64,000 nt of DNA from Promethearchaeia archaeon (GTDB taxonomy: Archaea; Asgardarchaeota; Lokiarchaeia; Sigyniarchaeales; SOKP01). Below, piece by piece: positions 6,268 to 24,102 of this stretch (its first letter is position 1; the number at the start of each line of letters is the position of its first letter). The stretch covers positions 192,001-256,000 of the forward strand of contig JAHQWG010000016.1 in assembly GCA_029856045.1 (NCBI GenBank). The letters run 5' to 3'. Position numbers and translations under genes: made by a program. The notes under the pieces were generated by a model that worked only from the letters and a program-made list of their open reading frames with translations, did not search any database and was not told the DNA's origin.

Positions 6268-7095
6268 TTGATATTGGATATGTTTAAAAAAGAATTGGGA
6301 ATTATTGGTACTGGCAATATTGGATTATCCTTATTAAATGGTATAATTAAATCAAAAATTATTGAAAAACAAAAAATTATAATATATGATATTAAAAAAG
6401 ATATTCTAAATCAATGTTCCAACCAGTTTAATGTAGAAATTGCACAAAATAATACCGATTTAGCTCATAAGAGTAAATATATATTAATCGCAGTTAAACC
6501 ACAAGTAATAAATACGGTTCTAGAAGAAATTGGATCTGTAGTTGATGAACAACAAATAATAATCTCTATTGTAGCAGGAATCCCAATTAAATATCTTTCT
6601 ACGTTTTTTAAAAAAGATGTAGGTTTATCAAGAGTAATGACTAATACACCTGCTTTAATTGGTTGTGGGGCATCTGCAATCTCTAATAATGGAAAAATGC
6701 ATGAAGAAAATCTTAATTTTGTAAAAAAAATTTTTAATGCAGTAGGGATAGTTGTAGAATTAGATGAAAGACATCTTGATGCTGTAACAGGATTATCAGG
6801 TAGCGGTCCTGCATATATATTTTTGATCATTGAGGCTTTAGCTGATGGTGGAGTTAAAATGGGGTTATCACGTGATGTATCTTTACAATTAGCTGCCCAG
6901 ACTGTTTTAGGTGCAGCAAAATTGGTTATAAAAACTGGAAAACACCCGGCACTTCTAAAAGACATGGTAGCTACTCCTGGAGGTACGACAATTGATGCAT
7001 TGCACATGTTAGAAATTGGAAATATTAGATCTATTTTAATTGATGCAGTCGAAACTGCAACCATCAAATCCCGAAAACTTGGTTCAAAGGAGTAA
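6268..7095 (+). CDS. proC: Pyrroline-5-carboxylate reductase
   Basis: GIIGTGNIG, AVKPQ, RVMTNTP, TGLSGSGPAY, TPGGTT; likely ATG start at 6280. Confidence 0.96.
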   Translation: MILDMFKKELGIIGTGNIGLSLLNGIIKSKIIEKQKIIIYDIKKDILNQCSNQFNVEIAQNNTDLAHKSKYILIAVKPQVINTVLEEIGSVVDEQQIIISIVAGIPIKYLSTFFKKDVGLSRVMTNTPALIGCGASAISNNGKMHEENLNFVKKIFNAVGIVVELDERHLDAVTGLSGSGPAYIFLIIEALADGGVKMGLSRDVSLQLAAQTVLGAAKLVIKTGKHPALLKDMVATPGGTTIDALHMLEIGNIRSILIDAVETATIKSRKLGSKE

Positions 7096-7388: not shown

Positions 7389-9320
7389 TTGATAGTGATG
7401 GGAGGCACTTTAACAGAAAAGATTTTAAAAAAACACCTTGTTAATGGTAAATTAGAAAAAGGTAGTAATATTGGTATAAGGATCGACCAAACCCTAACTC
7501 AAGATGCTACCGGTACTATGGCTTATTTGCAATTCGAAGCTATGGGAGTACCTCACGTTCGAACAAAATTATCTGTTAGTTATGTGGATCACAACACTTT
7601 ACAAATAGACTTCAGAAATGCAGATGATCACAGATATCTACAAAGTATTGCAGCAAAATATGGAATCTACTTTTCTCGTCCAGGAAATGGTATATGTCAT
7701 CAGCTCCATCTCGAACGTTTTGCAGTACCTGGAAAGACTTTATTAGGAAGCGATAGTCATACACCAACTGGTGGTGGGGTGGGTATGATAGCAATAGGAG
7801 CAGGTGGTCTTGATGTTGCCGCTGCTATGGCTGGAGAACCTTTTTTTTTAAAGATGCCAAAGATCGTAAATGTTCATCTTACAGGGAAACTCCCTGATTT
7901 TGTATCAGCAAAAGATGTTATTTTGGAAGTTTTACGTAGAATTGGTATTAAAGGGGCTGTTAATAAAGTTTTGGAATATACAGGTCCGGGAATAAAAACT
8001 TTATCAGTTCCTGAAAGAGGAACCATTACAAACATGGGAACAGAAACAGGAGCGACAACTTCAATATTCCCTTCTGATGAAACGACGAAAAAGTTCTTAG
8101 AAGCCCAAGAGAGAGGAGATCAATGGAATCCTTTAAAACCCGATGATGATGCTACTTATGATGAGATTATTGAAATAAATTTGAATGAGATTGAACCACT
8201 TATTGCTTTACCGCATAGTCCGGGAAATGTAAAACTAGTAAAAGAATTTGAGGGGAAGTCTGTTGATCAAATTTGTATAGGAAGCTGTACCAACTCCTCA
8301 TTAAGAGATCTTAAAATAGTTGCCAATATTTTAAAAGGAAAAACAATCAATAATCATGTTAGCTTAACAATTTCGCCAGGATCTAGACAAGTCGTAGATC
8401 ATCTCGTGAACTCTGGTGAAATATCCAATTTAGTAAAAGCAGGAGCAAGGATACTTGAGAACACGTGCGGTCCTTGCATAGGAATGGGACAGGCACCATC
8501 AACTGATGCAATATCTCTTAGGACCTTTAATAGAAACTTCCTTGGAAGATCAGGAACAAAAAGTGCCAATGTTTATTTAGTTAGTCCTGAAACTGCTGCA
8601 GTGTCGAGTATATTTGGAAAAATAACAGATCCGAGAAAGTTTGGTGAGTATCCCAAAATAGAAATGCCAGATAAATTTATAGTTAACGATAATATGATTA
8701 TATCGCCTTTAGAGGATAGTGATTCAATTGAAATCATCCGAGGACCTAATATCAAACCTCTACCTGCATTCGAACCTTTACAAGATAAACTAACAGGAGA
8801 AGTTCTATTAAAAGTAGAGGATGACATAACTACTGATCATATTATGCCAGCAGGTGCAAAAATACTCCCATTACGAAGTAATATTCCTGAAATAAGCAAA
8901 TATGTTTTTAATATTATAGATCCCACATTTCCAGATAGATCTCTACAAAAAGAAGGGGGTTTTGTTATCGGAGGTGATAATTATGGACAGGGTTCAAGTA
9001 GAGAACATGCGGCTATCGCTCCTAAATACCTAGGGCTCAAAGCTGTGATAACAAAATCATTTGCTCGTATTCATCTAGCTAACCTTGTTAATTTTGGGAT
9101 TGCACCTTTTACTTTTATAAATAAGGAAGATTATAATAAGATTGATCAAGGTGATCAACTTGATATTAATTTAAAAACCCTGGAAAGTAAAAAGATCATC
9201 ATGAAAAATCTGACAAAGAATTTAGAAATCCCTCTTACCCATTCTCTTAGTGAGATGGAAATAATTGTATTAAAGGCTGGGGGAAAATTGCCATTTATAA
9301 AAAAAAGATATGCGAGTTAA
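7389..9320 (+). CDS. acnA: Aconitate hydratase
   Basis: QDATGTMA, DSHT, GSCTN, CGPCIG cluster ligands, TTDHI, NYGQGSSREHAA; likely ATG at 7398. Confidence 0.92.
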   Translation: MIVMGGTLTEKILKKHLVNGKLEKGSNIGIRIDQTLTQDATGTMAYLQFEAMGVPHVRTKLSVSYVDHNTLQIDFRNADDHRYLQSIAAKYGIYFSRPGNGICHQLHLERFAVPGKTLLGSDSHTPTGGGVGMIAIGAGGLDVAAAMAGEPFFLKMPKIVNVHLTGKLPDFVSAKDVILEVLRRIGIKGAVNKVLEYTGPGIKTLSVPERGTITNMGTETGATTSIFPSDETTKKFLEAQERGDQWNPLKPDDDATYDEIIEINLNEIEPLIALPHSPGNVKLVKEFEGKSVDQICIGSCTNSSLRDLKIVANILKGKTINNHVSLTISPGSRQVVDHLVNSGEISNLVKAGARILENTCGPCIGMGQAPSTDAISLRTFNRNFLGRSGTKSANVYLVSPETAAVSSIFGKITDPRKFGEYPKIEMPDKFIVNDNMIISPLEDSDSIEIIRGPNIKPLPAFEPLQDKLTGEVLLKVEDDITTDHIMPAGAKILPLRSNIPEISKYVFNIIDPTFPDRSLQKEGGFVIGGDNYGQGSSREHAAIAPKYLGLKAVITKSFARIHLANLVNFGIAPFTFINKEDYNKIDQGDQLDINLKTLESKKIIMKNLTKNLEIPLTHSLSEMEIIVLKAGGKLPFIKKRYAS

Positions 9321-10622
9321 TTGGATATGGCACAAAAAAATATATATGAATATGATGCAAAAAAACTTATAGCGAGTCAATTACCTAATTATTTTCCCGA
9401 ATTTAATTACCATGAAAAATTAGCGGTAATTACTCCTGAGAAATTGGCTAATTTTGATAGATTTGTAGCAGAAAATCCATGGTTAAAAACAGATAAATTA
9501 GTGGCAAAACCAGACCAACTTTTTGGAAAGAGGGGTAAAGCTAATCTAATATTACTAGACGCTAATTTAGAACAATTAAAGAAATTTGCTGAAGAAAAAT
9601 TAGATCAGCAAATCATAATAGGAAATGTTAAAGGTGTTCTCAATCGTTTATTAATAGAACCATACATTCCCCATGAAGCTGAATACTATATATCAATAAC
9701 ATCTGATCGGTATAATGATATAATTCATTTTAGTTTTGAAGGAGGTATTTTTGTAGAAGAAAACTGGGATAAAGTAATTCATATTTCAATTCCATTTGAG
9801 AAAAATATCGAATCTTTCGATTTGGAAACAAAACTTCCTAATTTAGGAAAATTTAATGATGTATTAATTCCTTTTATTAAAGGTCTTTTTCAAGTTTATT
9901 GTGCTCAAGATTTTGCTTTTTTAGAAATTAATCCTTTTGCAATTACTGAGGATAAAAAAATTGTTCCGCTAGATTTAAAAGCTAGATTAGATGATACTGC
10001 TGCATTCTTACATATGGATACTTGGGGGAATCCAAATAACCCAATTGAATTTCCAATTGGTATTGGGCAAAAATTGGCAAAAGAAGAAGCTCTTATTAAG
10101 GATTTAGATGAAAAAACAGGTGCTTCTCTTAAATTTCAGATTTTAAATAGAGATGGACAAATTTGGACTATGGTGGCAGGTGGGGGTGCATCAGTTGTAT
10201 ATACGGATACTATAGTTGATCTAGGATATGGAGATGATTTAGGTAATTATGGTGAATATTCTGGCAATCCTTCTCGTGAGCACACTGAAATTTATGCTCA
10301 AAATATAATTGATCTTATTTCAACCAACCCAGATCCCCAAGGAAGAGAGAAATATCTTATTATTGGTGGTGGAATTGCTAATTTTACAGATGTTAAGGCA
10401 ACCTTTACTGGAATTGTTAGCGCAATTAGAAAATCTGCTAATAAATTAAAAAATGCAAAAGTTAAAATATTTGTTCGTAGGGGTGGTCCTAATGAAAAAC
10501 AAGGTCTAGAACTCATGAAGCAAGTGGGAAAAGAAACTGGCGTTCCGATTGAAGTTTACGACCGATACACACATATGACTCGAGTTGTATCAATTGCACT
10601 TAATAAAAATTTGAAGAGGTAA
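9321..10622 (+). CDS. aclB: ATP-citrate lyase beta (ATP-grasp) subunit
   Basis: KPDQLFGKRGK, LEINP, ASLK, WTMVAGGGASVVY, NYGEYSG, GGGIANFT, VRRGGPN ACL motifs. Confidence 0.94.
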   Translation: MDMAQKNIYEYDAKKLIASQLPNYFPEFNYHEKLAVITPEKLANFDRFVAENPWLKTDKLVAKPDQLFGKRGKANLILLDANLEQLKKFAEEKLDQQIIIGNVKGVLNRLLIEPYIPHEAEYYISITSDRYNDIIHFSFEGGIFVEENWDKVIHISIPFEKNIESFDLETKLPNLGKFNDVLIPFIKGLFQVYCAQDFAFLEINPFAITEDKKIVPLDLKARLDDTAAFLHMDTWGNPNNPIEFPIGIGQKLAKEEALIKDLDEKTGASLKFQILNRDGQIWTMVAGGGASVVYTDTIVDLGYGDDLGNYGEYSGNPSREHTEIYAQNIIDLISTNPDPQGREKYLIIGGGIANFTDVKATFTGIVSAIRKSANKLKNAKVKIFVRRGGPNEKQGLELMKQVGKETGVPIEVYDRYTHMTRVVSIALNKNLKR

Positions 10623-10626
10623 TAAA

Positions 10627-12462
10627 ATGGAAAGTTATAAACTTTTTAATAAAAATACTCAAGCAATTATTTATGGTTTTCAAACAAGACCCGTCCAGCG
10701 CATGCTTGATTTTGATTTTGTTTGTAAAAGAAAAAAACCATCAGTTGCCGCAATAATTAGACCAACTCAGACGACAGCCATAGACTATCATAAAGTCTTT
10801 TGGGGCAATAAAGAAATTGTTATCCCCATTTATAAAACACTAGCATTAGCAACTAAAAAGCATCCAATAGCCGATGTGATGATCAATTTCTCTTCTTTTA
10901 GATCATCTTATCCCACTAGCAAGGAAGCTCTTGAGTCAGATACAATAAGAACAGTTGTTATAATTGCTGAAGGTATTCCAGAAAGACAAAGCCGCGATTT
11001 AATTAGAATCGCACGTGAAAGAAGTAAATTTATTATAGGTCCTGCAACAGTAGGTGGAATAGTAGCTGGTAATTTCAAAATTGGAAATACTGCTGGGACC
11101 CTTGAAAATATAATTCTTTCAAAACTCTATCGCCCAGGTTCAATTGGTTTTGTTTCTAAATCAGGTGGTATGAGTAATGAAATGAATTTTATGATTTCTC
11201 AATGCACTGATGGTATCTATGAAGGTATAGCTATAGGTGGTGACCGTTATCCGGGTTCGCGTTTAATAGATCACCTTTTACGTTATGAAACCAATCCCAA
11301 AATTAAAATGTTGGTAGCACTAGGAGAAATAGGAGGAACAGATGAGTATGCAATTGTAGAAGCATTGAAAAATGGATCTATTAAGAAACCATTGGTCATA
11401 TGGGTAACTGGGACCGCTGCAAAAATTTTACCTCAAGGATTACAATTTGGTCATGCCGGTGCTATGGCTGGAAGCGAGAAAGAAACTGCTGACGCGAAAA
11501 ACCAAGCTCTTAGAGAAGCTGGAGCAATTGTTCCTGATTCTTATGAAGATTTAGATAAAAAAATTAAAGAAACATTTGAAAAATTAAAAAAAGAAGGAAA
11601 AATCGTGCCGTTTGATGAATTTGAACCACCTAAAGTTCCAATGGACTTTTCCGAAGCCCAGCGTTTAGGCTTAGTAAGAAGACCTACAAACGTTATTGTT
11701 ACAATTTCGGACGATCGGGGTGATGTTCCCACTTTTGCTGGTGTAGGATTAGATAAAATTATTAGAGAAAATAAATCAATTGGATATGTAATTGGTCTTT
11801 TATGGTTTAAAAGAGAATTACCAGAATTTGCTCAACAATTTATTGAAATAGTAATTAAATTAACTGCAGATCACGGTCCAGCTGTAAGTGGGGCACATAA
11901 TGCGATTATCACTGCTCGAGCGGGTAAGGATCTTATGTCTTCACTTGCTTCTGGTATATTAACGATTGGACCTCGCTTCGGCGGTGCTATCTCGAACGCA
12001 GCGAAATATTTTAGAGAAGCTTTACAGAAAAGAATGTCTCCCTTAGAATTTATTAATTATATGAAAAATACGGCAAAAATAAATATACCAGGGATAGGTC
12101 ATAGAATTAAATCCGTTCAAAATCCCGATGTACGTGTTCAACTACTTAAAGAATTTGTATTTAAAAATTTCTCTAAACACCCACATCTTGATTATGCTTT
12201 AGATGTAGAAAAAATTACCACTTCAAAGAAAAATAATCTCATTTTAAATGTTGATGGATGTATTGGTATCTGTTTCTTAGACCTTCTTGAAAATTTAGAT
12301 TTTACTACTGAAGAAATTGAGGATGTAATATATAGTGAGACTTTAAATGGTCTTTTTGTCCTTGGAAGATCTATTGGTATGATGGGACATGTTTTCGATC
12401 AGAAACGTCAGCGAGCTGGGCTTTTTAGGGAACCTTGGGACCAAATATTATTCACAGATTAG
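10627..12462 (+). CDS. aclA: ATP-citrate lyase alpha subunit (CoA-binding, phospho-His and citryl-CoA lyase domains)
   Basis: QRMLDFDF, IGPATVGG, KSGGMSNE, QFGHAGA phospho-His loop, ADHGPAVSGAHN, PGIGHRIKS, LNVDG. Confidence 0.95.
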   Translation: MESYKLFNKNTQAIIYGFQTRPVQRMLDFDFVCKRKKPSVAAIIRPTQTTAIDYHKVFWGNKEIVIPIYKTLALATKKHPIADVMINFSSFRSSYPTSKEALESDTIRTVVIIAEGIPERQSRDLIRIARERSKFIIGPATVGGIVAGNFKIGNTAGTLENIILSKLYRPGSIGFVSKSGGMSNEMNFMISQCTDGIYEGIAIGGDRYPGSRLIDHLLRYETNPKIKMLVALGEIGGTDEYAIVEALKNGSIKKPLVIWVTGTAAKILPQGLQFGHAGAMAGSEKETADAKNQALREAGAIVPDSYEDLDKKIKETFEKLKKEGKIVPFDEFEPPKVPMDFSEAQRLGLVRRPTNVIVTISDDRGDVPTFAGVGLDKIIRENKSIGYVIGLLWFKRELPEFAQQFIEIVIKLTADHGPAVSGAHNAIITARAGKDLMSSLASGILTIGPRFGGAISNAAKYFREALQKRMSPLEFINYMKNTAKINIPGIGHRIKSVQNPDVRVQLLKEFVFKNFSKHPHLDYALDVEKITTSKKNNLILNVDGCIGICFLDLLENLDFTTEEIEDVIYSETLNGLFVLGRSIGMMGHVFDQKRQRAGLFREPWDQILFTD

Positions 12463-12578
12463 AATTATATTTTTATATATTTAATGCAAAGTTATTAAAA
12501 TTTCATTAAAATTGGAAATATCTTAAGTAAAAAATAAAAAAAAATATTAAATAAAATGATATCTGAGGTTTAAAGATA

Positions 12579-13769
12579 ATGGATGAAATTATAGAAAAAG
12601 CAAAAGAACATTTCGCAAAAATCGTAAAAGAGCAGTTAGAAAGAGTAGAAAAGTTAAAAAGTGAAAAAGATTGGATTGATTATTCAAAGTTAAAACCCAT
12701 TATTATAGGGATTGTTGGTGGAGATGGTATTGGTCCTGAAATTTCAAAGCATGCTAAAAAAATATTTGAATTTCTTTTACAAGACGAATTAAAAGAAGGA
12801 AAAGTTGAATTGAGAGAAATTGAAGGATTAACCATTGAAAATAGAGCAAAAGTAATGAAGGCAATACCAGAAGATATTCTTGAAGAAATTAAAAAATGTC
12901 ATGTTCTGTTAAAAGGTCCTACAACGACTCCTAGAAAGGGTGATAAATGGCCTAACATCGAAAGTGCTAATGTATCAATGCGCCGTGAATTAGATCTTTT
13001 TGCAAATGTACGCCCCGTGAAAGTTCCCGAACTTGGTATTGATTGGATGTTTTTCCGAGAAAATACTGAAGGAGCTTATGTTTTGGGCTCCAAAGGGGTA
13101 AACATTACTGAAGATCTCTCATTTGATTTTAAAGTAATTACAACACAAGGAGCAGATCGTATAATCAGGCTAGCTTTTGATTATGCTAAGAAGAATAATA
13201 TTAATAGAGTCACAGTTGTAACTAAAGCTAATGTAGTAAAAGCAACTGACGGGAAATTTCTTGACATAGCTGAAAAAATTGCTAAGGAATATCCCGAAAT
13301 TGAATGGGACGATTGGTATATTGACATTATGACTGCAAAATTAATAGACCCCGCTCGTCAATCTCAATTTAAGATTTTAGTAGCTCCTAATCTATATGGG
13401 GACATTATTACCGATGAGGCTGCACAAATCCAGGGTGGCGTTGGAACGGCAGGTAGTGCTAATATAGGTAAGAGATATTCCATGTTCGAAGCAATTCATG
13501 GATCAGCTCCACGTATGGTTGAAGAAGGTCGCTTAAAATATGCTGATCCCTCAAGTCTAATAAAAGCTTCAGCATTATTACTTAATCATATAGGTTTCAT
13601 AGAAAAGGCGAAAAAATTAGAAATGGCACTTGATATATGCGCAACATATGAGAAGAAGTTAGAAATAACGGGAAGATCAAATGGTGCAACTGGGGAAGAT
13701 TTCTCAAAATATATAATGGAAACTCTCCAACATCCAAATTTAGAGGAAAAATGGAAAAGTTATCAATAG
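12579..13769 (+). CDS. icd: Isocitrate dehydrogenase (isocitrate/isopropylmalate dehydrogenase family)
   Basis: GDGIGPEI, KGPTTTP, RENTEG, KANV, NLYGDI, FEAIHGSAP; follows acn-acl. Confidence 0.8.
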   Translation: MDEIIEKAKEHFAKIVKEQLERVEKLKSEKDWIDYSKLKPIIIGIVGGDGIGPEISKHAKKIFEFLLQDELKEGKVELREIEGLTIENRAKVMKAIPEDILEEIKKCHVLLKGPTTTPRKGDKWPNIESANVSMRRELDLFANVRPVKVPELGIDWMFFRENTEGAYVLGSKGVNITEDLSFDFKVITTQGADRIIRLAFDYAKKNNINRVTVVTKANVVKATDGKFLDIAEKIAKEYPEIEWDDWYIDIMTAKLIDPARQSQFKILVAPNLYGDIITDEAAQIQGGVGTAGSANIGKRYSMFEAIHGSAPRMVEEGRLKYADPSSLIKASALLLNHIGFIEKAKKLEMALDICATYEKKLEITGRSNGATGEDFSKYIMETLQHPNLEEKWKSYQ

Positions 13770-13879: not shown

Positions 13880-15238
13880 ATGCCTAAAAAAAAAATAATT
13901 ATAATAGGAGCACTTGGAATGGATTTTCATGTTTTTAACACTATCTTTAAAGATAATGAGGAATATGAGGTGATTGCATTTACAATTGCGGGAGAACAGA
14001 ATATTGGAACAATTGAAGATGCAGAGAGAAAATATCCAGCTGAACTTGCAGGGAAATTATATCCTAATGGAATTCTAATGGTAACAGAGGCAAAATTGGA
14101 AGAATTAATTAAAAAACATAAAGTAGATGAGGTGGTTTTTGCATATTCTGATGTCTCACATGAAGAAGTCATGCATAAAGCTTCACGAGTTCTTGCTTCA
14201 GGAGGAGATTATCGTTTAATTTCAGGTAGAAATACTATGATTAAAGCTAATAAACCAATTATTTCAATTTGTGCAGTAAGGACTGGATGTGGAAAAAGTC
14301 AAGTATCTAGGGCTGTATATCGCTATTTAAAAAATAGAGGTTATAAAGTTGTTGCGATCCGCGAACCAATGCCTTATGGAAATTTAATTGAACAAAATGT
14401 AATGCGTTTTGAAACTTATGAGGACTTGGATAAATTTAAATGCACTATTGAAGAGCGAGAAGAATATGAACCGTATATTAAACAAAGTTTGGTAATTTAT
14501 TCTGGTGTTGATTATGAGAAAATTGTTCGGGAAGCAGAAAAAGAAGCAGATATAATTATTTTCGATGGAGGTAATAACGAAATATCTTTCTATATTCCAG
14601 ATTTACTTTTTGTTGTTGTAGATCCGCTAAGACCCGGCCATGAAACGAAATATTATCCAGGGGAAGTAAACGCACGGATGGCAGATGCATTTGTTATTAA
14701 CAAAATGAATAGTGCAAAAATAGAAGATGTTAAAAAAGTTGAGAAAAATCTCCAAGATTTAAATCCTGATGCGAAAAAGATTTTTACAAATTCTGTTGTT
14801 ATATTAGAAAATTCTTATAACTTAAAAGGTAAAAAAGTTATTGTAGTCGAAGATGGTCCCACTCTGACTCATGGAGGTATGTCTTATGGAGCAGGGTATG
14901 TCGCGGCAAAAAATAAAGGAGCTGTTATTATTGACCCAAAACCTTATCTCACGGGTACATTGATAGAAATTTTTAAAGAATTCCCCCAAATTAAAGAAAT
15001 TGTGCCTGCAATGGGATATAATGATCAACAAATAAAAGATATGGAAGAAACGCTTAATAAATCAAAATGTGATCTTATTATTAATGGGAGCCCAATTGAT
15101 CTTGCGAAGTTAATTAATAGTAACAAACCAATAGTTAGAGTCACTTATGATATAGAAGCGTTAAGTAGTCCTACAATTGAGGAAGTTCTTGATGAATTCA
15201 TTCAAAAGTTATTAAAAAAACAAAACGGTAAAAATTAA
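13880..15238 (+). CDS. cDPG-synthetase-like P-loop NTPase, probable arginine synthetase (ArcE-like)
   Basis: DFHVFN, AVRTGCGKSQ, R.PMPYG, TIEEREEYE, DGGNNE, VEDGPTLTHGGM motifs; clustered with OTC and carbamate kinase, with no arginine deiminase in the window. Confidence 0.75.
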   Translation: MPKKKIIIIGALGMDFHVFNTIFKDNEEYEVIAFTIAGEQNIGTIEDAERKYPAELAGKLYPNGILMVTEAKLEELIKKHKVDEVVFAYSDVSHEEVMHKASRVLASGGDYRLISGRNTMIKANKPIISICAVRTGCGKSQVSRAVYRYLKNRGYKVVAIREPMPYGNLIEQNVMRFETYEDLDKFKCTIEEREEYEPYIKQSLVIYSGVDYEKIVREAEKEADIIIFDGGNNEISFYIPDLLFVVVDPLRPGHETKYYPGEVNARMADAFVINKMNSAKIEDVKKVEKNLQDLNPDAKKIFTNSVVILENSYNLKGKKVIVVEDGPTLTHGGMSYGAGYVAAKNKGAVIIDPKPYLTGTLIEIFKEFPQIKEIVPAMGYNDQQIKDMEETLNKSKCDLIINGSPIDLAKLINSNKPIVRVTYDIEALSSPTIEEVLDEFIQKLLKKQNGKN

Positions 15239-15337: not shown

Positions 15338-17527
15338 ATGAAAATGTTGAATTTAGCAGAAAAAAAATATGAATTAAAAAAAATAGCAAGAGGTTATACA
15401 AATCGGACCCTTTATATCAATTTAACAAAAAATGAAATCTTAATTAAACCAGTTACCAATGAAATGAAAGATAAATTTATTGGTGGCAAAGGATTCGATC
15501 TCTGGCTTATGTGGAATGCTCTACCTAAAGATCGAATTGTAAAATGGGATGATCCAGAAAATGAAATTTGTATCTCATCTGGTCCGCTTGGAGGTAATAC
15601 ATTTTACCCAGGTTCTGGAAAATCAATAGTCACAACAATATCTCCATTAACAGGAATAATAATTGATAGTAATGTTGGTGGTTATTTTGGGCCATATTTG
15701 AAATTTTCTGGATTTGATGCACTGGAAATTCATGGAAAAGCAAAACAAGAAATTATAATTTTTATTGATGGAATAAATGGAATTATTCGCATTGAAGAAA
15801 TAAATGATTTTGAAAATCTTTCAAATGACTCTCATTTACTCACGCAACAATTAACGGAAAAATATGCAAAAGATGAAAATGAAAAAATTCAAATTTCTGT
15901 TGTAAGTACAGGTTCAGCTTCTAAACATACTAAATGGGGAATGTTAAATTTCTCTTGGTATAGTCGCAAACGTAAATGGGCTTCATGCAAACAAGCAGGA
16001 CGCGGTGGAGTTGGAACTGTCTTTGCTGATAAAAATCTCAAAGCTTTAATTTGTCGGTCTCCCAAAGTTGATTTAGAAATAAATAACCCAGCAGATTTTG
16101 ATACAGCTCGTAAGATCGGTAAAAAACATAACCAAGAGATTATTAAATATGATCCAATACAAAATGAAATGAGATCTGTGGGAACAGGACATCTCCCAGA
16201 GATCATGAATGTATATGATCTTCTCCCAACTGAAAATTTTCGTTTTGGGTCTCATAAGGTAATAAAAGATAATAAAATTCCTCTCAATCGAGAAGCATGG
16301 CGTAAAATTTTTTCTGGGGAATCTGGTAGTGATGGTTGTTGGTTTGGTTGTACACTCAGTTGTTCTCACTATTGTAGGGAACATAAAGTAATAACTGGTC
16401 CTTATAAAGATCAAAAAGTTATTGTAGATGGTCCGGATTATGAAACTATTGCAGGTTGTGGTCCAAATTGGGGTGTTTGGGACCCCAAATGGTTATTAGA
16501 AACAAATTTCTACTGTGATACATACGGTCTCGATACAATCTCTGTAGGAACAGGAATTGCTTTTGTTATGGAATGTTATGAAGCTGGAATTTTAAATAAA
16601 GAAATCACTAGTGGACTAGAACTTAATTTTGGTAATGCTTTTGCTGCTTTAGAACTAATCCATCAAATGGCTGAAGGGAAAGGGTTTGGTTTAATTGTAG
16701 GACAAGGTATTCATATAATGAAAAACATTTTTGCTGAGAAATATGGAGCAGATCCTAAATTTCTTCATGATATTGGTATGGAACATAAAGGTTTAGAATT
16801 CTCTGAATATGTTACCAAAGAATCATTGGCTCAACAAGGAGGATATGGACTTACTCTAAAAGGACCGCAACATGATGAGGCATGGTTAATATTTGAAGAT
16901 ATGGTTAGAAAATCTATTCCAACATTTGAAGACAAGGCTAAAGCATTATGTTGGTTTCCTTTCTGGAGAACATGGTTCTCATTAAATGGACTCTGTAAAT
17001 TACCATGGAATGATGTTCAACCTCCAAATAATGTTGAATATCCTGTTAGAGACCCAAAAACTAAAGAACTTCTCCGTGCAAGGATTCCAAACCATGTAGA
17101 GTGGTATTCACAATATTTCTCAGCTGTAACTGGTCGCAAATCTACTCCTAAGGATCTTATTAGAATGTCTGAGCGAGTGTATAACTTTCAAAGAATTTTT
17201 AATATCCGACAAGGTAAGGGTCTTCGAGAACATGATTCCAATTTACCCTATAGAGCTGTTGGTCCTGTAACGCCTACTGAATATGAGAGTCGTTTAGAGA
17301 GATATGATGATCAAATTAAAGATATTGGAATTAATATTAAGGGAAAAACAACAGAGGAAAAAATTAGGATTCTACGGGAGTATCGAGAAAAACAATATGA
17401 AATGCTTCAAGATGCTGTTTATAAACATCGTGGCTGGAATAATAAGGGTTGTCCAACGATTGAAAAAGCCAAAGAATTAGGAATTGCATTTGATGATGTT
17501 ATTTCTGTGATTCTTCCCTACCAATAA
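15338..17527 (+). CDS. Tungsten aldehyde:ferredoxin oxidoreductase family protein
   Basis: SNVGGYFG, AGRGGVG, CWFGCTLSC cluster motif, DYET, GLDTIS, ERVYNFQRIFN. Confidence 0.9.
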   Translation: MKMLNLAEKKYELKKIARGYTNRTLYINLTKNEILIKPVTNEMKDKFIGGKGFDLWLMWNALPKDRIVKWDDPENEICISSGPLGGNTFYPGSGKSIVTTISPLTGIIIDSNVGGYFGPYLKFSGFDALEIHGKAKQEIIIFIDGINGIIRIEEINDFENLSNDSHLLTQQLTEKYAKDENEKIQISVVSTGSASKHTKWGMLNFSWYSRKRKWASCKQAGRGGVGTVFADKNLKALICRSPKVDLEINNPADFDTARKIGKKHNQEIIKYDPIQNEMRSVGTGHLPEIMNVYDLLPTENFRFGSHKVIKDNKIPLNREAWRKIFSGESGSDGCWFGCTLSCSHYCREHKVITGPYKDQKVIVDGPDYETIAGCGPNWGVWDPKWLLETNFYCDTYGLDTISVGTGIAFVMECYEAGILNKEITSGLELNFGNAFAALELIHQMAEGKGFGLIVGQGIHIMKNIFAEKYGADPKFLHDIGMEHKGLEFSEYVTKESLAQQGGYGLTLKGPQHDEAWLIFEDMVRKSIPTFEDKAKALCWFPFWRTWFSLNGLCKLPWNDVQPPNNVEYPVRDPKTKELLRARIPNHVEWYSQYFSAVTGRKSTPKDLIRMSERVYNFQRIFNIRQGKGLREHDSNLPYRAVGPVTPTEYESRLERYDDQIKDIGINIKGKTTEEKIRILREYREKQYEMLQDAVYKHRGWNNKGCPTIEKAKELGIAFDDVISVILPYQ

Positions 17528-17565: not shown

Positions 17566-19656
17566 TTGATGGAAAATATAACTAATCATCCCATCCTTAA
17601 GATACCTAAAAGAAAATTAGTTAATTTTAGTTTTAATGGAAAAAAAATAACGGGGTTTGAAGGAATGGTGATTTCCTCAGCTCTTTTTATGAATAAAATC
17701 AAAATTTTTGGTCATCATGCAAAAGATAACAGCCCTCAAGGTATTTTTTGTTCTAATGGGCAGTGTGCTCAATGCACAGTTATTGTCAATGGTAAACCTG
17801 TAAAATCTTGTATGACTCCACTTAATGATGGTATGATAATAGAAAGCTGTGAGGGTTTGCCGGAATTACCAGATGATGATAAACTGGTCTCAGTGGGAGA
17901 CCCACCAATAATAGAAACTCAATTGTTAATAATAGGTGCTGGACCTGCTGGTCTTTCAGCTTGTCAAATCCTTGGAGAAAAAGGGATTCAAGTAATTATA
18001 ATTGATGATAAAGACAGACCTGGTGGAAAATTAGTCCTTCAAACTCATAAATTTTTTGGCTCTCAAGAAGATGTATATGCAGGTAAACGAGGCATAGATA
18101 TTGCAGAAATTCTCAGTGAGGCAGTTCGCTCCTTATCTAATGTGGATATTTGGCTTAACAGTACTGCTTTAGCTGTTTTTAGCGATGGTTTAATTGGTAT
18201 CTTAAAAAATAATGAAGAATATGTTATAGTAAAACCAAAATATCTCTTAATTGCTACAGGAGCAAGAGAACAAATGCTAATATTTCCAGGTAATACCCTT
18301 CCAGGAGTATATGGTGCTGGTGCATTTCAGACCTTAGTTAATCGGGATTTAATTAAAGCTGCAGAACGTATCTTCATCGTAGGTGGCGGTAATGTGGGAT
18401 TAATTGCAGGATATCATGCACTCCAAGCTGGTATTGAAGTTATTGGTTTGATTGAAGCACTACCCCAATGTAGTGGATACAAGGTCCATGAAGATAAACT
18501 TAGATTTTTGGATGTTCCGATTTATACAAGTCATACTGTTTTATCAGCAAATGGAGATAATAAAGTAGAATCTATTACTATTGGACAAGTAGATAAAAAT
18601 TTTAATATACTTCCTGGAACCGAAATAACTTTTGCTGTTGATGCTATTTTAATTGCAGTTGGCTTAAACCCAGTAGATGAATTTTATCATAAAGCTAAGG
18701 AATATAAATTGAAAGTTTGGGTGGCTGGTGATGCTCAAGAGATAGCAGAGGCATCTGCAGCAATTTTTACGGGCAAAATTGAAGGAATTAAAATATTAAA
18801 GGAAATGGGACTTAATACAATAGATAATGTTGATGAACTTGAAGAAAAAGCAAGTATTATGAAATCAAAACCCCTTCCTCCTGTTCAATTAGATGTTCCA
18901 GATATAGAAGAAGGAATCTTTCCTGTTTTCCATTGCATTCAAGAAATCCCATGCAATCCTTGCACTTCTGTATGCCCTCAAAAGCAGATTGAAACGATTG
19001 ACGGTTCAATAATGCAATTACCATATTTTAAAGGGGAGAAAGAATGCACTGGTTGTGGACGATGTATAGCTGTATGCCCTGGTTTAGCAGTGACTTTAAT
19101 TGATTATCGTAAGGATAAAAACAATCCAATTGTTACTTTTCCATTTGAAATGACTACTGAAAAGTTAAAGATGGATCAAATAATTACAATAGTTGGTAAT
19201 CATGGCGAATTAGGCCAATTTAAAGTAATTAAATCTAGAATTATTAAAGATTTTCCACTCACTCAACTTGTATCCATCAAATTACCATCTAAAATTGCTA
19301 AACGTGCCGTGGGTATTAGATTACAACCATCAATTGTTAGAGAACCTTTAGAACTTTACTATAAACACCCTCTTGCTAATGATACCATTGTATGTCGATG
19401 TGAACGAGTAACGGTTGGTGAAATCAGAAAATGGATACGTAAAGGAATAACTGATTTTAATGAGCTTAAAGCTTTAACTCAAGTTGGAATGGGAGCATGT
19501 GGAGGCAAAACATGCACTCCTCTTATTTATCGCATCTTCAGTGAAGAAGGAGTATCTCTTGATGAAATTACCCCCGGAACATTACGTCCTTTATTAATAG
19601 AAGTCCCCATGGGTCTTTTTGCTCGAACAAAGGAGGAGGATAAATATCGAATATGA
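17566..19656 (+). CDS. Multidomain flavo-iron-sulfur oxidoreductase (proline dehydrogenase/sarcosine oxidase alpha-like, fused ferredoxin and BFD-like domains)
   Basis: N-terminal CSNGQCAQC 2Fe-2S, IGAGPAG FAD site, ATGA, GGGNVG, IPCNPC/CTGCGRCIAVCP ferredoxin, C-terminal CRCE..CGGKTC. Confidence 0.85.
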   Translation: MMENITNHPILKIPKRKLVNFSFNGKKITGFEGMVISSALFMNKIKIFGHHAKDNSPQGIFCSNGQCAQCTVIVNGKPVKSCMTPLNDGMIIESCEGLPELPDDDKLVSVGDPPIIETQLLIIGAGPAGLSACQILGEKGIQVIIIDDKDRPGGKLVLQTHKFFGSQEDVYAGKRGIDIAEILSEAVRSLSNVDIWLNSTALAVFSDGLIGILKNNEEYVIVKPKYLLIATGAREQMLIFPGNTLPGVYGAGAFQTLVNRDLIKAAERIFIVGGGNVGLIAGYHALQAGIEVIGLIEALPQCSGYKVHEDKLRFLDVPIYTSHTVLSANGDNKVESITIGQVDKNFNILPGTEITFAVDAILIAVGLNPVDEFYHKAKEYKLKVWVAGDAQEIAEASAAIFTGKIEGIKILKEMGLNTIDNVDELEEKASIMKSKPLPPVQLDVPDIEEGIFPVFHCIQEIPCNPCTSVCPQKQIETIDGSIMQLPYFKGEKECTGCGRCIAVCPGLAVTLIDYRKDKNNPIVTFPFEMTTEKLKMDQIITIVGNHGELGQFKVIKSRIIKDFPLTQLVSIKLPSKIAKRAVGIRLQPSIVREPLELYYKHPLANDTIVCRCERVTVGEIRKWIRKGITDFNELKALTQVGMGACGGKTCTPLIYRIFSEEGVSLDEITPGTLRPLLIEVPMGLFARTKEEDKYRI

Positions 19657-20809
19657 TGTAATCATAATCGGTTCGGGAAGTATTGGAGTTCCAACTGCAT
19701 TAGCCACAGCTCATGATGGACTTAAAACACTCGTTATTGAAGTATTACCTTCTCTTGCTCAAGGCGACAATAAACATGCAATTGGTGGAATTCGAGCAAC
19801 TCATTCACAAAAAAGTAAAATCTGGATTTGCCAAAGATCCATAGAAATCTTTTCTACTTGGAAAAAGAAGTACGGGGATGATATTTGGTGGGTTGAAGGG
19901 GGTTATGTTTTTATAGCAATTACAGAAGAACAAGAGAAATTGCTAAAAGACACTGTTGATCTTCAAAAGAAATATGGCTTAAACATTGAATATGTTGATG
20001 CGGAAAAAATTAAGGTACTTATACCTGGTATTAATGATCAAGGGTTATTGGGAGGAACTTTTAGCCCTAAAGATGGAAATGCTTCCCCTTTATTAGCCTT
20101 ACATTCCTTTTATCAGCAGTCAATAAATTGGGGGGCAGAATATAAATTTAAAGAAAAAGTTATTGATATTTTAATATATAATAAGAAAGTAACTGCTGTT
20201 AAAACTACAAAGGGCACCTATAAAACAAAAAATATAATTAATGCAGCTGGGGCTCTTGCAAAAAATATTGGTCAAATGGCTGGAATCGATATACCCGTGC
20301 AACCTGATTCTCACGAAGCTGGAATTACTGAACCTATTAAAAATTTTTTTTCACCTATGGTTGTTGATACACATCCCTGCTTAGATCCAAAATTTGGGAA
20401 TTCAAAAAATTATTATTTCTATCAGAATAAAGAAGGACAAATTATTTTCTGCCTTACTCCTGATCCAAGCAAATTTGGCACAGATCGAAGAGAAACAAGT
20501 TCCTTTTTACCGCAAATTTCAAAGAGGATGATTAAACTTTTACCTCGTTTGCGCAATATAAAAATAAGACGAACATGGCGAGGGTTATACCCAATGACTC
20601 TTGATGGAAATCCTATTATTGGACCTGTTAATAACCTTAAAGGATATATTAATGCTGTTGGGATGTGTGGACAAGGTTTTATGCTTGGTCCCGGGGTGGG
20701 GGAACTTCTAAGTCGTCTTTTAACTGGGAGAATTAACTCTCAAGATAATGAAATTTTTGAAGATCTTTCATTATATCGAAATTTTTATCAAGCAGAAGAT
20801 TTAAAGTAA
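19619..20809 (+). CDS. FAD-dependent amino-acid dehydrogenase (proline dehydrogenase/sarcosine oxidase beta-like)
   Basis: YDVIIIGSGSIG, GGIR, RTWRGLYPMT.DG.PIIG, GQGFMLGP DAO-family motifs; start codon uncertain. Confidence 0.85.
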   Translation: MLEQRRRINIEYDVIIIGSGSIGVPTALATAHDGLKTLVIEVLPSLAQGDNKHAIGGIRATHSQKSKIWICQRSIEIFSTWKKKYGDDIWWVEGGYVFIAITEEQEKLLKDTVDLQKKYGLNIEYVDAEKIKVLIPGINDQGLLGGTFSPKDGNASPLLALHSFYQQSINWGAEYKFKEKVIDILIYNKKVTAVKTTKGTYKTKNIINAAGALAKNIGQMAGIDIPVQPDSHEAGITEPIKNFFSPMVVDTHPCLDPKFGNSKNYYFYQNKEGQIIFCLTPDPSKFGTDRRETSSFLPQISKRMIKLLPRLRNIKIRRTWRGLYPMTLDGNPIIGPVNNLKGYINAVGMCGQGFMLGPGVGELLSRLLTGRINSQDNEIFEDLSLYRNFYQAEDLK

Positions 20810-20889: not shown

Positions 20890-21843
20890 ATGAAATTAGA
20901 GGTGGATAAAATGATAAGACATTTATTAAAGATATCTGATTTCACAAAAGAGGAGTCCGAGAGAATTATTAACAAAGCAATTGAAATCAAGGCAAAGATG
21001 GAAAATTATAATACTATTTTGAAAAATAAAACCCTTTTAATGCTTTTTGAGAAACCATCTTTAAGAACTCGTGTTTCTTTTGAAACAGGAATGGAACAAC
21101 TTGGTGGTCATGCAATTTTTTATTCAATAAAAGATTCTCCTCTTGGAAAGAAAGAGAATATACATGATACAGCAAAAGTTACCTCAAGGTTTGTTGATTT
21201 GATTGCTGCTAGGGTTTTTAAAAGGGAGGATCTTCGAGAACTGGCAAAACACTCAGATGTTCCCGTTATAAATATGTTAGATGATTTTGCCCACCCTTGT
21301 CAAATCCTTAGCGATTTTCAAACTATTAAAGAGAAAAAAAATCGTCTTAAAAACTTGAAGATCTCATATTTTGGAGATGCTCATAATAACGTTACCTATG
21401 ACCTTATGAGGATGACTGCAATATTTGGTTTAAGAATGGATGTTGCATGTCCCAAGGGTGTAGAGTATTCCCCTGAGCAAGAAGTACTAGATGAGGTTGC
21501 AGAACTTTCAAGGAATACTGGAGCTGTAGTTAGGGTAATTGATAATGCCATAGAAGCCGCAAAGGAATCTGATATTGTATATACCGATTCATGGATGTCT
21601 TATGGAATTCCAGAAGAGCAAGAAGAAGAAAGAAAGAAAGATTTTATGCCCTATCAAGTAACCTCCATTATTATGTCAGCAGCAAAACCTGAAGCAATTT
21701 TCATGAATTGTCTACCTGCTATGCGAGGATATGAACAGACCGCCGAAATTATTGACGGTCCTCAATCTATAGTCTTTGATCAGGCAGAAAATCGCTTGCA
21801 TGCACAAAAAGCAATAATATTATTTTTACTTGACAAATTTTAA
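20890..21843 (+). CDS. argF: Ornithine carbamoyltransferase
   Basis: FEKPSLRTR, HPCQ, YTDSWMS, MNCLP, DQAENRLH. Confidence 0.95.
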   Translation: MKLEVDKMIRHLLKISDFTKEESERIINKAIEIKAKMENYNTILKNKTLLMLFEKPSLRTRVSFETGMEQLGGHAIFYSIKDSPLGKKENIHDTAKVTSRFVDLIAARVFKREDLRELAKHSDVPVINMLDDFAHPCQILSDFQTIKEKKNRLKNLKISYFGDAHNNVTYDLMRMTAIFGLRMDVACPKGVEYSPEQEVLDEVAELSRNTGAVVRVIDNAIEAAKESDIVYTDSWMSYGIPEEQEEERKKDFMPYQVTSIIMSAAKPEAIFMNCLPAMRGYEQTAEIIDGPQSIVFDQAENRLHAQKAIILFLLDKF

Positions 21844-21875: not shown

Positions 21876-22781
21876 ATGAAAACTTTAATCGTTGCGCTTG
21901 GTGGAAACGCGCTAATTAAGTTTGGAGAAGAAGGAACTACTGAAGAACAATTTAGAAATTTACGAACTCCAATCAGACAAATTGCCGAATTATCAAAGGA
22001 ATATAATATCATTATAACACATGGAAATGGACCTCAAGTTGGAAACCTTCTACTGCAACAAGAGGCAACTAATGAAGTCACAAAAAGACCCTTGGGGATT
22101 TTAGTAGCTGAAACCCAAGGACAAATTGGATATATGATCGAATCAACCTTGGATGAGGAACTTATGCGCCTTAATATTGATGTTGAAAAACTATTTCTTA
22201 CTGTGTTGACATATGTACAAGTTGATCCTGAAGATCCAGCATTTAAACACCCAACTAAACCAATCGGACCTGCTTATTCAGAACCAGAACCTGGGTTTGT
22301 AAAAACTCCAAAAGGATGGCGACGAGTTGTTCCCTCTCCAAAACCCATCAAAATCTATCAATGGCGTGAAATTGAAAAATTAATCCAAGAAAATTTTATT
22401 GTAATTGCTTGCGGTGGTGGAGGAATTCCTGTGATAAAAGATGGTAGACGATTGCAAGGGGTTGAAGCTGTTATTGATAAAGATCTTGCTAGTGCAAAAT
22501 TGGGCCAACAAGTTGGTGCAGACATTCTGTTAATTGCAACTGATGTTGAATATGTTGCCTTGAATTATAAAAAACCAAATCAAAGGAATCTATTAAACCT
22601 TTCAATTTCAGATGTAAAAAAATATCTAAAGGAAGGACAGTTCCCAACTGGAAATATGGGCCCAAAAATGGAAGCTGTTATAAACTTTTTGGAATCTGGT
22701 GGAGAAAAAGCAATTATAACATCAATTGAAAATATCAAAGTAGCATTGCACGGAAAAACAGGAACTCAAATATATAAATAA
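21876..22781 (+). CDS. arcC: Carbamate kinase
   Basis: ALGGNAL, THGNGPQVG, PTKPIGP, RRVVPSPKP, GGGGIPV, EAVIDKD, MGPK. Confidence 0.96.
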   Translation: MKTLIVALGGNALIKFGEEGTTEEQFRNLRTPIRQIAELSKEYNIIITHGNGPQVGNLLLQQEATNEVTKRPLGILVAETQGQIGYMIESTLDEELMRLNIDVEKLFLTVLTYVQVDPEDPAFKHPTKPIGPAYSEPEPGFVKTPKGWRRVVPSPKPIKIYQWREIEKLIQENFIVIACGGGGIPVIKDGRRLQGVEAVIDKDLASAKLGQQVGADILLIATDVEYVALNYKKPNQRNLLNLSISDVKKYLKEGQFPTGNMGPKMEAVINFLESGGEKAIITSIENIKVALHGKTGTQIYK

Positions 22782-22842: not shown

Positions 22843-24102
22843 TTAATCAACAATTACATTTTCAATTATCTTCAAAGCCCAATCAATTTCTTTCTTGGTA
22901 ATTATTAAAGGTGGAGCGAAACGAATAGTTGTTGAATGAGTATCTTTGGCTAGAATTCCCTGTTCTTTTAGTTTCTCTACGAAATGTCTTGCCTCTCCCT
23001 CAAACTCAATGGCGATTAATAAACCCTTTCCCCTTACTTCTTTAACCGGGACTTTTGTTTTCTTATTTGTGATCTTTTTTAATCCATCAATAAAATAAGC
23101 ACCAATTTCTCTTGCTCGTTCTGCGAGATTTTCATTAATATGAACATCCAATGATTTCATAGCAACTGCAGCTGCTAGAGGGTTACCACCAAAGGTACTT
23201 CCATGGGTTCCTGGAGTTATTATCTCTGGACCAATTATCTCAGCTGTTGTTACAACTGCTGAAACTGGATATACTCCTCCTCCAAGCGCTTTACCAAGTA
23301 GAAACATATCTGGTTTGACATTTTCATGATCACACGCGAAAAGTTTTCCAGTCCTACAAAAACCCGTCTGTATTTCATCAACCATTAACAAAATATTATA
23401 TTTAGAACAAATCTTTCTTATCTTTCTTAAATATCCCTCTGGAGGGACTTTCACTCCCGCCTCTCCTTGGATTGGTTCAACTAAAAATGCTGCCACTTTT
23501 CCTGGACCAATTTCTAAGATTGTATTTTCCAATTTTTCTGCATCTCCATAAGGGATAATTGTAAACCCAGGCGTAAAAGGACCAAAATTATCGAAATATC
23601 TTGCATGTTGAATATCTGTACTTAATCCTACTAAAGTAATCGTTCTTCCGTGAAAATTATCATTACATACAATAATATTTGCCTCTCCTTTTGGTATCTT
23701 TTTCTTTATATAACTCCATGCTCTTGCTACTTTTAAACCTGTCTCCACTGCTTCTGCCCCCGTATTCATTGGCAAAGCCATTATCCCTGTTTTTTTTGGA
23801 TTATTCACATGTGGCCCAACAATATCACATAACTGTTTTAAATATGGTCCCATCATGTCATTATGGAATGCTCGAGAAGTTAGAGTTACTTTATCAGCTT
23901 GGTCTTTCAATGCTTTTATTATTTCAGGATGACAATGTCCAGTATTTTGACTTGAATATGCTGATAAACAGTCAAGATATTTTTTTCCTTCTGGATCATA
24001 TACCCAACACCCTTCTGCTTTTGATATAACTACAGAGATGGGATGATAATTATGAGCACCGTATTTTAAATCCATTTCAATGAATTCTTTTGAAGTTGGC
24101 AT
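22843..24102 (-). CDS. rocD: Ornithine--oxo-acid aminotransferase
   Basis: GAHNYHP, DCLSAYS, LTSRAF, PMNTGAEAVE, EPIQGEAG, DEIQTG, LGKALGGG, HGSTFGGNPL. Confidence 0.93.
   Translation of the reverse strand: MPTSKEFIEMDLKYGAHNYHPISVVISKAEGCWVYDPEGKKYLDCLSAYSSQNTGHCHPEIIKALKDQADKVTLTSRAFHNDMMGPYLKQLCDIVGPHVNNPKKTGIMALPMNTGAEAVETGLKVARAWSYIKKKIPKGEANIIVCNDNFHGRTITLVGLSTDIQHARYFDNFGPFTPGFTIIPYGDAEKLENTILEIGPGKVAAFLVEPIQGEAGVKVPPEGYLRKIRKICSKYNILLMVDEIQTGFCRTGKLFACDHENVKPDMFLLGKALGGGVYPVSAVVTTAEIIGPEIITPGTHGSTFGGNPLAAAVAMKSLDVHINENLAERAREIGAYFIDGLKKITNKKTKVPVKEVRGKGLLIAIEFEGEARHFVEKLKEQGILAKDTHSTTIRFAPPLIITKKEIDWALKIIENVIVD

Follow-up and report, generated by a model that had tools for sequence, protein, structure and literature searches.

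How does an archaeon that appears equipped to form glutamate-5-semialdehyde (GSA) from ornithine as well as from proline oxidise this aldehyde to glutamate, if the canonical dehydrogenase for the step is missing? The question is raised by a gene cluster in a 64,000-nucleotide stretch of the genome of a Promethearchaeia archaeon (Lokiarchaeia, Sigyniarchaeales; assembly GCA_029856045.1, contig JAHQWG010000016.1, positions 192,001 to 256,000), which we call the window. The cluster contains a gene for the large subunit of an AOR/WOR-family tungstopterin (or molybdopterin) aldehyde oxidoreductase, here AOR. An original prediction made from the letters of the window had placed this gene between an ArcE-like gene and a proline-dehydrogenase-like gene pair, and the coordinates bear this out (Table 1; the pair spans 17566-20809). 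From gene content, catalytic residues, gene order, the absence of canonical alternatives and the distribution of the gene we infer that the physiological role of AOR in this lokiarchaeon is the oxidation of GSA to glutamate, the last step of arginine, ornithine and proline catabolism. We put the probability of this reading at about 0.45; biochemically the enzyme is a candidate for the role.

According to this proposal, ArcE, ornithine carbamoyltransferase (OTC) and carbamate kinase (CK) would convert arginine to ornithine with a gain of ATP. RocD, starting from ornithine, and the proline dehydrogenase PdhAB, starting from proline, would both yield GSA, which is in equilibrium with pyrroline-5-carboxylate (P5C). 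AOR would oxidise the aldehyde, or its hydrate, to glutamate at the pterin-bound metal (tungsten or molybdenum), and the two low-potential electrons might leave through its [4Fe-4S] cluster, with ferredoxin or flavodoxin as acceptor, and end up in H2 or formate in syntrophy. The glutamate could then enter glutamate dehydrogenase.

The AOR protein and its clade

The AOR gene is an intact open reading frame (ORF). A Pfam search of the 729-aa protein gave matches to PF02730 (AFOR_N, 1.4e-45) and PF01314 (AFOR_C, 8.6e-90) and none to PF00171, the aldehyde dehydrogenase (ALDH) superfamily; it could therefore be an analogue of the P5C/GSA dehydrogenases in function only and not a member of their family. 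The closest relatives are all from Promethearchaeota/Asgard archaea. Among solved structures, the top sequence match is the AOR of Pyrococcus furiosus (PfAOR, 1aor; 1.4e-47), followed by the FOR of the same organism (PfFOR, 1b25). Alignment to PfAOR assigns the [4Fe-4S] ligands to Cys334, Cys338, Cys342 and Cys553 (C288, C291, C295 and C494 in PfAOR), all of which are invariant in an alignment of 29 clade members. Four second-shell residues, Thr243, Glu313, Tyr427 and His448 in PfAOR, distinguish the aldehyde-oxidising AOR clades from YdhV and BamB (PMC13328260, PMC12096430). Their counterparts here are Thr283, Glu369, Tyr491 and His512, of which Glu369 is conserved in at least 90% of the 29 sequences and the other three are invariant. 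The gene product is thus predicted to be a catalytically competent aldehyde oxidoreductase of the AOR family.

The AF2 model of the protein (pLDDT 82, pTM 0.89) contains no cofactor, and the cofactor-dependent loop 482-512, which holds Tyr491 and His512, has a pLDDT below 50. A fold search with this model retrieved 1b25, 1aor, 9mqx, 8c0z, 6x1o and 4z3w, each with a probability of 1.00. The top PDB match was PfFOR 1b25 (TM 0.85 on the target, 26% structure-aligned identity), but the search has no power to separate FOR, AOR and WOR1, for all of which TM was 0.76-0.88 on the target. AOR exceeds the classic enzymes in length by about 120 aa.

Ten AOR paralogs are encoded in the genome, and the window AOR alone sits in the arginine/proline cluster. 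A FastTree phylogeny of 112 sequences, which excludes PfAOR, FOR, GAPOR, WOR4/5, YdhV and BamB, places it in a 63-row clade (support 100) of long AORs with 700-740 aa; the other clade (49 rows) holds the nine remaining paralogs of the genome together with classic representatives of 600-640 aa. The long-AOR clade has one ortholog per Asgard genome and includes some bacterial sequences (42-60% identity). The placement in an AOR tree that the original prediction had called for is hence clear as regards the clade, and it does not bring the protein near an enzyme with a known substrate: the nearest characterised AORs show about 22-26% structure-aligned identity in the fold search, with none closer than about 26%. 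Models of two characterised groups were also compared with the window AOR and rejected as labels for it, GAPOR (NF040818, 43.9 bits against a cut-off of 1300) and YdhV (NF007354, 94.6 bits against a cut-off of 868, N-terminal domain only). Judged by sequence, the long AORs thus make up a clade of their own that is so far uncharacterised.

The 2026 WOR classification gives a defined physiological role for only five of 92 clades; it does not mention Asgard archaea, proline or semialdehydes, and arginine occurs in it solely as part of the Tat signal. The many AORs of Asgard archaea are handled in the literature on these organisms as generic, unclassified aldehyde oxidisers (PMC11291895).

Predicted sources and fates of GSA in the cluster and the genome

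The original prediction had named RocD and proline dehydrogenase as sources of GSA/P5C, and the sequence matches agree with both assignments. OTC, CK and RocD all exceed the curated equivalog cut-offs (Table 1). The gene for RocD is convergent with ck and has the same position in many of the linked loci described below. The PdhA/PdhB-like pair is closest to PDB entry 1Y56: PdhA has 1Y56_A (PH1363) as its best solved relative (2.5e-23), and PdhB matches 1Y56_B with 2.3e-52 (181 bits), the runner-up reaching only 2e-23, which is a margin of about 30 orders of magnitude in E-value. The titles in this entry read "hypothetical protein PH1363" and "sarcosine oxidase"; we take chains A and B to be the L-proline dehydrogenase PDH1 of P. 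horikoshii. The pdhA gene starts 38 bp past the AOR stop codon and overlaps pdhB by 38 bp. No ALDH-family gene is present in the arginine/proline cluster of the window, as the original prediction had stated for the NAD-dependent P5C dehydrogenase (P5CDH), and AOR is the sole aldehyde-oxidising enzyme there. Since an equivalog-level RocD and a PDH1-like pair both produce GSA/P5C next to this one aldehyde oxidiser, we count the cluster in favour of the GSA role.

Table 1. Features of the window discussed in the text, in order of position.
Feature	Position	Strand	Basis of assignment
Pyrroline-5-carboxylate reductase ProC	6268..7095	+	TIGR00112, 285 bits (cut-off 197)
acn-aclB-aclA-icd: aconitase, two-subunit ATP-citrate lyase, isocitrate dehydrogenase	7389..13769	+	co-oriented, nearly gapless
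ArcE-like P-loop protein, 452 aa, putative arginine synthetase	13880..15238	+	annotation class of relatives
AOR, aldehyde oxidoreductase large subunit, 729 aa	15338..17527	+	Pfam AFOR_N and AFOR_C
PdhA-like flavo-iron-sulfur subunit, 696-aa fusion (2Fe-2S, FAD/NAD(P), 2x[4Fe-4S], BFD-like 2Fe-2S)	17566..19656	+	Pfam; PDB
PdhB-like DAO-family FAD dehydrogenase, putative L-proline dehydrogenase catalytic subunit	19619..20809	+	PF01266; 1Y56_B
Ornithine carbamoyltransferase (OTC)	20890..21843	+	TIGR00658, 366 bits (cut-off 281)
Carbamate kinase (CK)	21876..22781	+	TIGR00746, 379 bits (cut-off 358)
Ornithine--oxo-acid (delta) aminotransferase RocD, source of GSA	22843..24102	-	TIGR01885, 529 bits (cut-off 378)
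tRNA gene, probably with intron	28560-28656	-	
Archaeal 23S rRNA gene, complete	56908-60060		

The ArcE-like protein matches no Pfam family and is weakly related to cyclic 2,3-diphosphoglycerate (cDPG) synthetase. Its label comes from the annotation of its relatives, which are called "GTPase" or "cyclic 2,3-diphosphoglycerate synthase". Homologs of arcE were formerly annotated as GTPase/cDPG synthase, before ArcE proved to be an arginine synthetase, and have been reported in Lokiarchaeota (PMC11032458). The reaction (Arg + ADP + Pi <-> citrulline + NH3 + ATP) works in both directions, and in vivo it can sustain the synthesis of arginine (PMC11032458).

The genome (3.34 Mb, 55 contigs, 100% complete) offers few alternatives for GSA. 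A single PF00171 ALDH is encoded in all of it, a generic one adjoining lipid genes on another contig, which scores 156 bits against the P5CDH model NF002852 (cut-off 648) and lies far under every curated cut-off. ArgG, ArgC and ProB had no match at the curated cut-offs in this complete genome, ProA was not found, and PutA-type proline dehydrogenase (ProDH) and ArcA had zero matches. Three glutamate dehydrogenase genes and one OCD-family gene are present. Given these gaps, the only fates left for GSA/P5C from RocD or PdhAB are proline, via ProC, and, if the hypothesis is granted, glutamate, via AOR.

Class I of the WOR family comprises enzymes in which WorL acts alone and is ferredoxin-linked, without the polyferredoxin WorS or the FAD subunit WorN and with an optional ThiS-like WorX (PMC13328260). 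The 2x[4Fe-4S] and FAD/NAD modules of PdhA could in principle act as WorS and WorN in the linked loci. A complex prediction for AOR and residues 432-696 of PdhA, both given as alignments, scored 0.00 and carries no weight either way.

Gene order and distribution in Asgard genomes

Conservation of the neighbourhood was analysed in 61 species-representative loci bearing an ortholog, which were searched with the proteins of the window; L, f and g numbers are the labels of loci, Asgard families and Loki genera within this analysis. AOR is followed by pdhA in 35 loci, which are Lokiarchaeial, and the gap is at most 120 bp in 29 of them. Where these linked loci have enough flank, arcE lies upstream of AOR in 23 of 25, and pdhB (28/28) and otc (22/22) are always present. 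AOR is more tightly linked to arcE, pdhAB, otc, ck and rocD than to any other flank: among the 15 linked loci whose upstream flank measures 8 kb or more, icd was found in five, aclA in four and proC in none. The acn-aclB-aclA-icd genes, which in the window lie directly upstream of the arginine/proline genes in the same orientation, are probably a module separate from the AOR core because their linkage to it is kept in only four to five of these 15 loci. In the window genome, proC is located between a GNAT gene and the aconitase gene; it is missing from the corresponding 228-bp intergenic spot (L057:1822-2050) of a relative with a 97%-identical AOR, which suggests that the gene was gained or lost recently.

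Foreign insertions at several junctions of the cluster (ThiC, a TPR protein, an amidohydrolase, ABC transporters) leave AOR in place. This conserved AOR-pdhA order amid insertions and flank turnover is the pattern produced by selection for co-regulation, and it is specific to one paralog. ThiC, the radical-SAM thiamine pyrimidine synthase (about 420 aa), lies between AOR and pdhA in four species (L008, L010, L016, L059), and the amidohydrolase of about 540 aa lies between pdhB and otc (L009, L011, L055). Seven linked loci (L012, L016, L018, L021, L023, L058, L063) have a flavodoxin gene of about 190 codons between arcE and AOR, directly upstream of AOR, which is preceded by a gene for a TetR-like regulator in four of the seven. 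The flavodoxin is a plausible electron acceptor of AOR and the regulator a candidate regulator of the AOR module.

The phylogenetic profile covered 201 Asgard genomes with at least 80% completeness; related genomes in it are not independent, and the class "P5CDH-like" was set by score and length alone. AOR orthologs occur in 114 genomes (f1 34/45, f2 4/4, f5 22/24, f7 41/48, f21 10/12, f25 2/3) and in none of the genomes of 19 other families. PdhA is encoded in 54 genomes, 52 of which also have AOR, and rocD in 73 genomes from f1, f2, f5, f14, f21 and f25. PutA-type ProDH was found in 21 genomes (f14 7/7, f23 3/3, f21 6/12, f5 3/24, f17 1/1, f4 1/2). P5CDH-like ALDHs of full length (about 545 aa) reach 360-400 bits to NF002852, in no case past the cut-off; they occur in f14 (7/7) and f23 (2/3), the two families that have the canonical ProDH and lack AOR. 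Families f1, f2, f5, f21 and f25 show the reverse combination: RocD or the proline dehydrogenase is present, P5CDH-like ALDHs are few and AOR is present. At the family level AOR thus tracks the P5C-producing enzymes. In the Loki genera g2 and g4, a genome has either all of AOR, pdhA and rocD or none of them; five genomes with 95-99% completeness lack all three. Six genomes of f21 have the PutA-type ProDH and five others have PdhA, with no overlap, so that the two types of proline dehydrogenase appear mutually exclusive in this family; a P5CDH-like ALDH is found in one of its 12 genomes and AOR in ten. These patterns fit a non-orthologous displacement of P5C dehydrogenase by AOR.

The original prediction, a GSA:ferredoxin oxidoreductase whose gene should be linked to rocD and pdh in other genomes, is therefore borne out in part. 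The linkage in the 35 Lokiarchaeial species and the co-occurrence at the family level agree with it; the other Asgard families and three Loki genera, in which orthologs are unlinked or no source of GSA was found, do not.

Weighing the proposed role

Several observations weigh against GSA oxidation as the role of AOR. Family f7 keeps AOR in 41 of its 48 genomes (56-61% identity), with a RocD ortholog, PdhA and PutA-type ProDH each in none of the 48. The Loki genera g3, g6 and g8 keep it in all eight genomes (about 70% identity), again with RocD and PdhA in none of the eight and no PutA-type ProDH found. Their AORs nest within the linked Loki clade in the gene tree, which implies that the pathway genes were lost there and AOR was kept. 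Since AOR is retained in f7, g3, g6 and g8, where no source of GSA was found, the clade must serve a function that does not depend on GSA, either instead of GSA oxidation or besides it. All three genes are present and unlinked in f5, f21 and part of f2. The orthologs in other Asgard families and in g3, g6 and g8 that are not linked to arginine/proline genes show 56-73% identity; those of f7, g3, g6 and g8 (56-72%) keep the same catalytic residues. Bacterial members of the clade (42-60% identity) lie beside ThiS-like, ferredoxin, second AOR or ILVD/FAD-oxidase genes, with no arginine/proline genes in the loci examined. Two linked loci that keep AOR carry an SSADH-like NAD(P)-dependent ALDH between otc and ck (L006:12018-13517, L025:18470-19972; 425 and 420 bits to NF006916, under the cut-off of 521). 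It could be the GSA dehydrogenase there, and its presence in two linked clusters also shows that oxidation of an aldehyde is part of the pathway. A P5CDH might likewise be the one generic ALDH that the window genome encodes. The cyclic imine P5C prevails over the free aldehyde in solution. Finally, characterised AORs are often scavengers with a broad substrate range (PMC13328260, PMC12096430).

The retention in f7, g3, g6 and g8 and the lack of linkage in f5 and f21 would agree with a rival reading, in which AOR is a broad-specificity aldehyde:ferredoxin scavenger like PfAOR that clears fermentation aldehydes, perhaps including GSA, and is merely co-transcribed with an amino-acid operon in Lokiarchaeales. 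The four second-shell residues are generic for aldehyde oxidation, and 21 loci with adequate flanks (from Hod-, Heimdall-, Thor- and Hermod-labelled metagenome-assembled genomes, some Promethearchaeota and one bacterium) lack arc, pdh and rocD genes in the vicinity of the ortholog. Five unlinked loci with a conserved neighbour, labelled Heimdall, Thor and Hod, have a ThiS-like gene upstream and no WorS, which is the layout of Class I WORs, and those characterised so far are mostly detoxifying (PMC13328260). On the other hand, the window genome has nine further paralogs, all classic AORs, at hand for scavenging and otherwise no use for GSA except ProC. None of the nine is in the cluster, where the window AOR has held its place in 35 species although genes were inserted and the flanks changed. 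It was also lost along with pdhA and rocD in g2 and g4. We regard such a co-regulated scavenger as unlikely, if still the strongest of the rivals. The only neighbours that recur beside the unlinked orthologs, in the Heimdall-, Thor- and Hod-labelled loci and in f5, f7 and f21, are ThiS-like proteins, Arf-family GTPases, LeuB/LeuC-like proteins and small unknown ORFs, and they give no functional lead. Ser93 and Thr339 are conserved in the P5C-producer lineages and changed in both AOR-only lineages (f7 and g3/g6/g8); f7 additionally shows W378I and W381F, and g3/g6/g8 shows Q275M, E277Q, H285Y and R580Q. We treat these residues as leads on specificity and not as evidence.

The same cluster might also run backwards, with reduced ferredoxin or flavodoxin driving glutamate to GSA as an ATP-free bypass of ProB/ProA and ArgB/ArgC that would feed ProC and, via RocD and the reversed OTC, CK and ArcE reactions, ornithine and arginine. 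The missing ProB, ProA, ArgC and ArgG and the reversibility of ArcE would suit such a route, as would the position of proC and the 2-oxoglutarate-forming acn-acl-icd genes upstream in the same orientation. AORs can reduce acids, as they do in acetogens, and the reaction would be drawn forward by the cyclisation of GSA to P5C and by ProC, whose step is exergonic. Thermodynamics disfavour the reduction of acids at about -580 mV, however, and we rank this direction below GSA oxidation because the proline dehydrogenase pair right downstream of AOR has no place in biosynthesis, the linkage to proC and acn-acl-icd is not conserved and cultured relatives are sustained by amino acids and peptides (PMC7015854); altogether it seems improbable. 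We give an equally small chance to another specific aldehyde, in which case the substrate of PdhAB would not be proline but some different amine (for example pipecolate, sarcosine or a further N-methyl amine, a polyamine derivative or a D-amino acid) and AOR would take formaldehyde, 2-aminoadipate semialdehyde or an amino-aldehyde. At 181 bits PdhB is distant from the characterised PDH1 beta subunit and also matches glycine oxidases, sarcosine oxidases and dimethylglycine dehydrogenases; PdhA matches the sarcosine oxidase alpha subunit too, and pairs of DAO enzymes and aldehyde dehydrogenases are known from other amine pathways such as Puu. Yet 1Y56_B leads every other solved DAO enzyme by the wide margin given above, the Pfam domains of PdhA include no folate-binding or demethylase module, and the ArcE-like protein, OTC, CK and the equivalog RocD converge on the C5 semialdehyde.

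If AOR does oxidise GSA, it could go further and form a PutA-like module with the fused PdhA, PdhB and, where present, flavodoxin, which would carry out the four-electron oxidation of proline to glutamate without quinone or O2. The low-potential aldehyde pair (about -580 mV) would then be confurcated with the high-potential proline pair to NAD(P)+ and/or ferredoxin. This extension is a long shot; if true, a syntrophic Asgard archaeon that evolves H2 could ferment proline and arginine.

Some features beside orthologs or elsewhere in the window were noted in passing. Genes for Arf-family small GTPases, which are Asgard eukaryote-signature proteins, adjoin unlinked AOR genes in f5 and g6 (L074:7330-7893, L075:10347-10901, L076), probably by coincidence. 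An unlinked Hodarchaeales ortholog has an Amidohydro_3 gene directly upstream (L062:7676-9241) and is followed immediately by a 104-aa ORF with a weak AFOR_C match (L062:12423-12737), which may be the remnant of a duplicated or truncated AOR. The window comes from an archaeon with a low GC content. Its 23S rRNA gene is complete, and no 16S or 5S rRNA gene was detected within the 64 kb, so the rRNA genes appear to be unlinked. The tRNA gene spans 97 nt and therefore probably contains an intron.

Comparison with known systems

The literature search yielded no paper that ties an AOR to GSA/P5C or discusses this cluster in Asgard archaea, in line with the original prediction, which knew of no such substrate for the family; in the papers on MK-D1, the words arginine, proline, ornithine and aldehyde are absent from the main text. 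The AOR family itself is known. What would be new, if the GSA reading holds, is a physiological substrate and a pathway role for the long-AOR clade. A pathway-specific AOR that replaces P5CDH would add a new class of physiological substrate to the family and close the route from arginine, ornithine and proline to glutamate in Lokiarchaeia without the canonical enzymes. The step would feed ferredoxin or flavodoxin rather than NADH, favouring the release of H2 or formate, which bears on syntrophy in models of eukaryogenesis.

The nearest mechanistic precedent is the FOR of P. furiosus (1B25/1B4N). Its best substrates are C4-C6 semi- and dialdehydes, glutarate was bound in the crystal and glutaric semialdehyde has been proposed as its substrate (PMC12096430). 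This compound is the deamino analogue of GSA, and FOR has the AOR/WOR fold, the single [4Fe-4S] cluster and the four second-shell residues in common with the window AOR. The two proteins differ in that they share 26% structure-aligned identity, the window protein being about 120 aa longer and belonging to a separate, strongly supported clade. We know of no linkage of the FOR gene to arginine or proline genes. Roy and colleagues are said to have suggested in 1999 that C4-C6 semialdehydes from arginine, lysine and proline metabolism are substrates of FOR; if so, this would be a forerunner of the present idea in a different clade. GAPOR of P. furiosus is a conceptual precedent, as a substrate-specific Class I WOR that takes the place of an NAD(P)-dependent aldehyde dehydrogenase in a central pathway, with ferredoxin receiving the electrons (PMC13328260), although pathway and substrate are others and the window AOR is not a member of that group.

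The proposed reaction, GSA to glutamate, is that of P5CDH and PutA (EC 1.2.1.88), and the pairing of AOR with the proline dehydrogenase mirrors that of ProDH with P5CDH and the bifunctional PutA. P5CDH uses NAD+ and a catalytic cysteine in an unrelated fold, whereas the window AOR would use pterin-bound tungsten or molybdenum and an Fe-S cluster and release electrons at the potential of ferredoxin or flavodoxin. For the preceding step, from proline to P5C, the best solved kin of the PdhA/PdhB-like pair are found in PDH1 of P. horikoshii (1Y56) and the alpha-beta-gamma-delta proline dehydrogenase of Thermococcales. The alpha-type subunit of the window differs from these in being fused with the 2Fe-2S, 2x[4Fe-4S] and BFD modules in one chain of 696 aa, and to our knowledge the Thermococcales enzymes have no AOR partner. 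The upper pathway is that of Thermococcus kodakarensis, where the arginine synthetase pathway consists of ArcE, OTC and CK together with ornithine aminotransferase and ProC. There, GSA/P5C is described as going into proline biosynthesis, and an enzyme for GSA to glutamate is not described (PMC11032458, PMC13260591). The window cluster has these upper pathway genes in common with T. kodakarensis and differs by the inserted AOR and proline dehydrogenase pair, which, if our reading is right, would extend the arginine synthetase pathway (PMC11032458) past ornithine.

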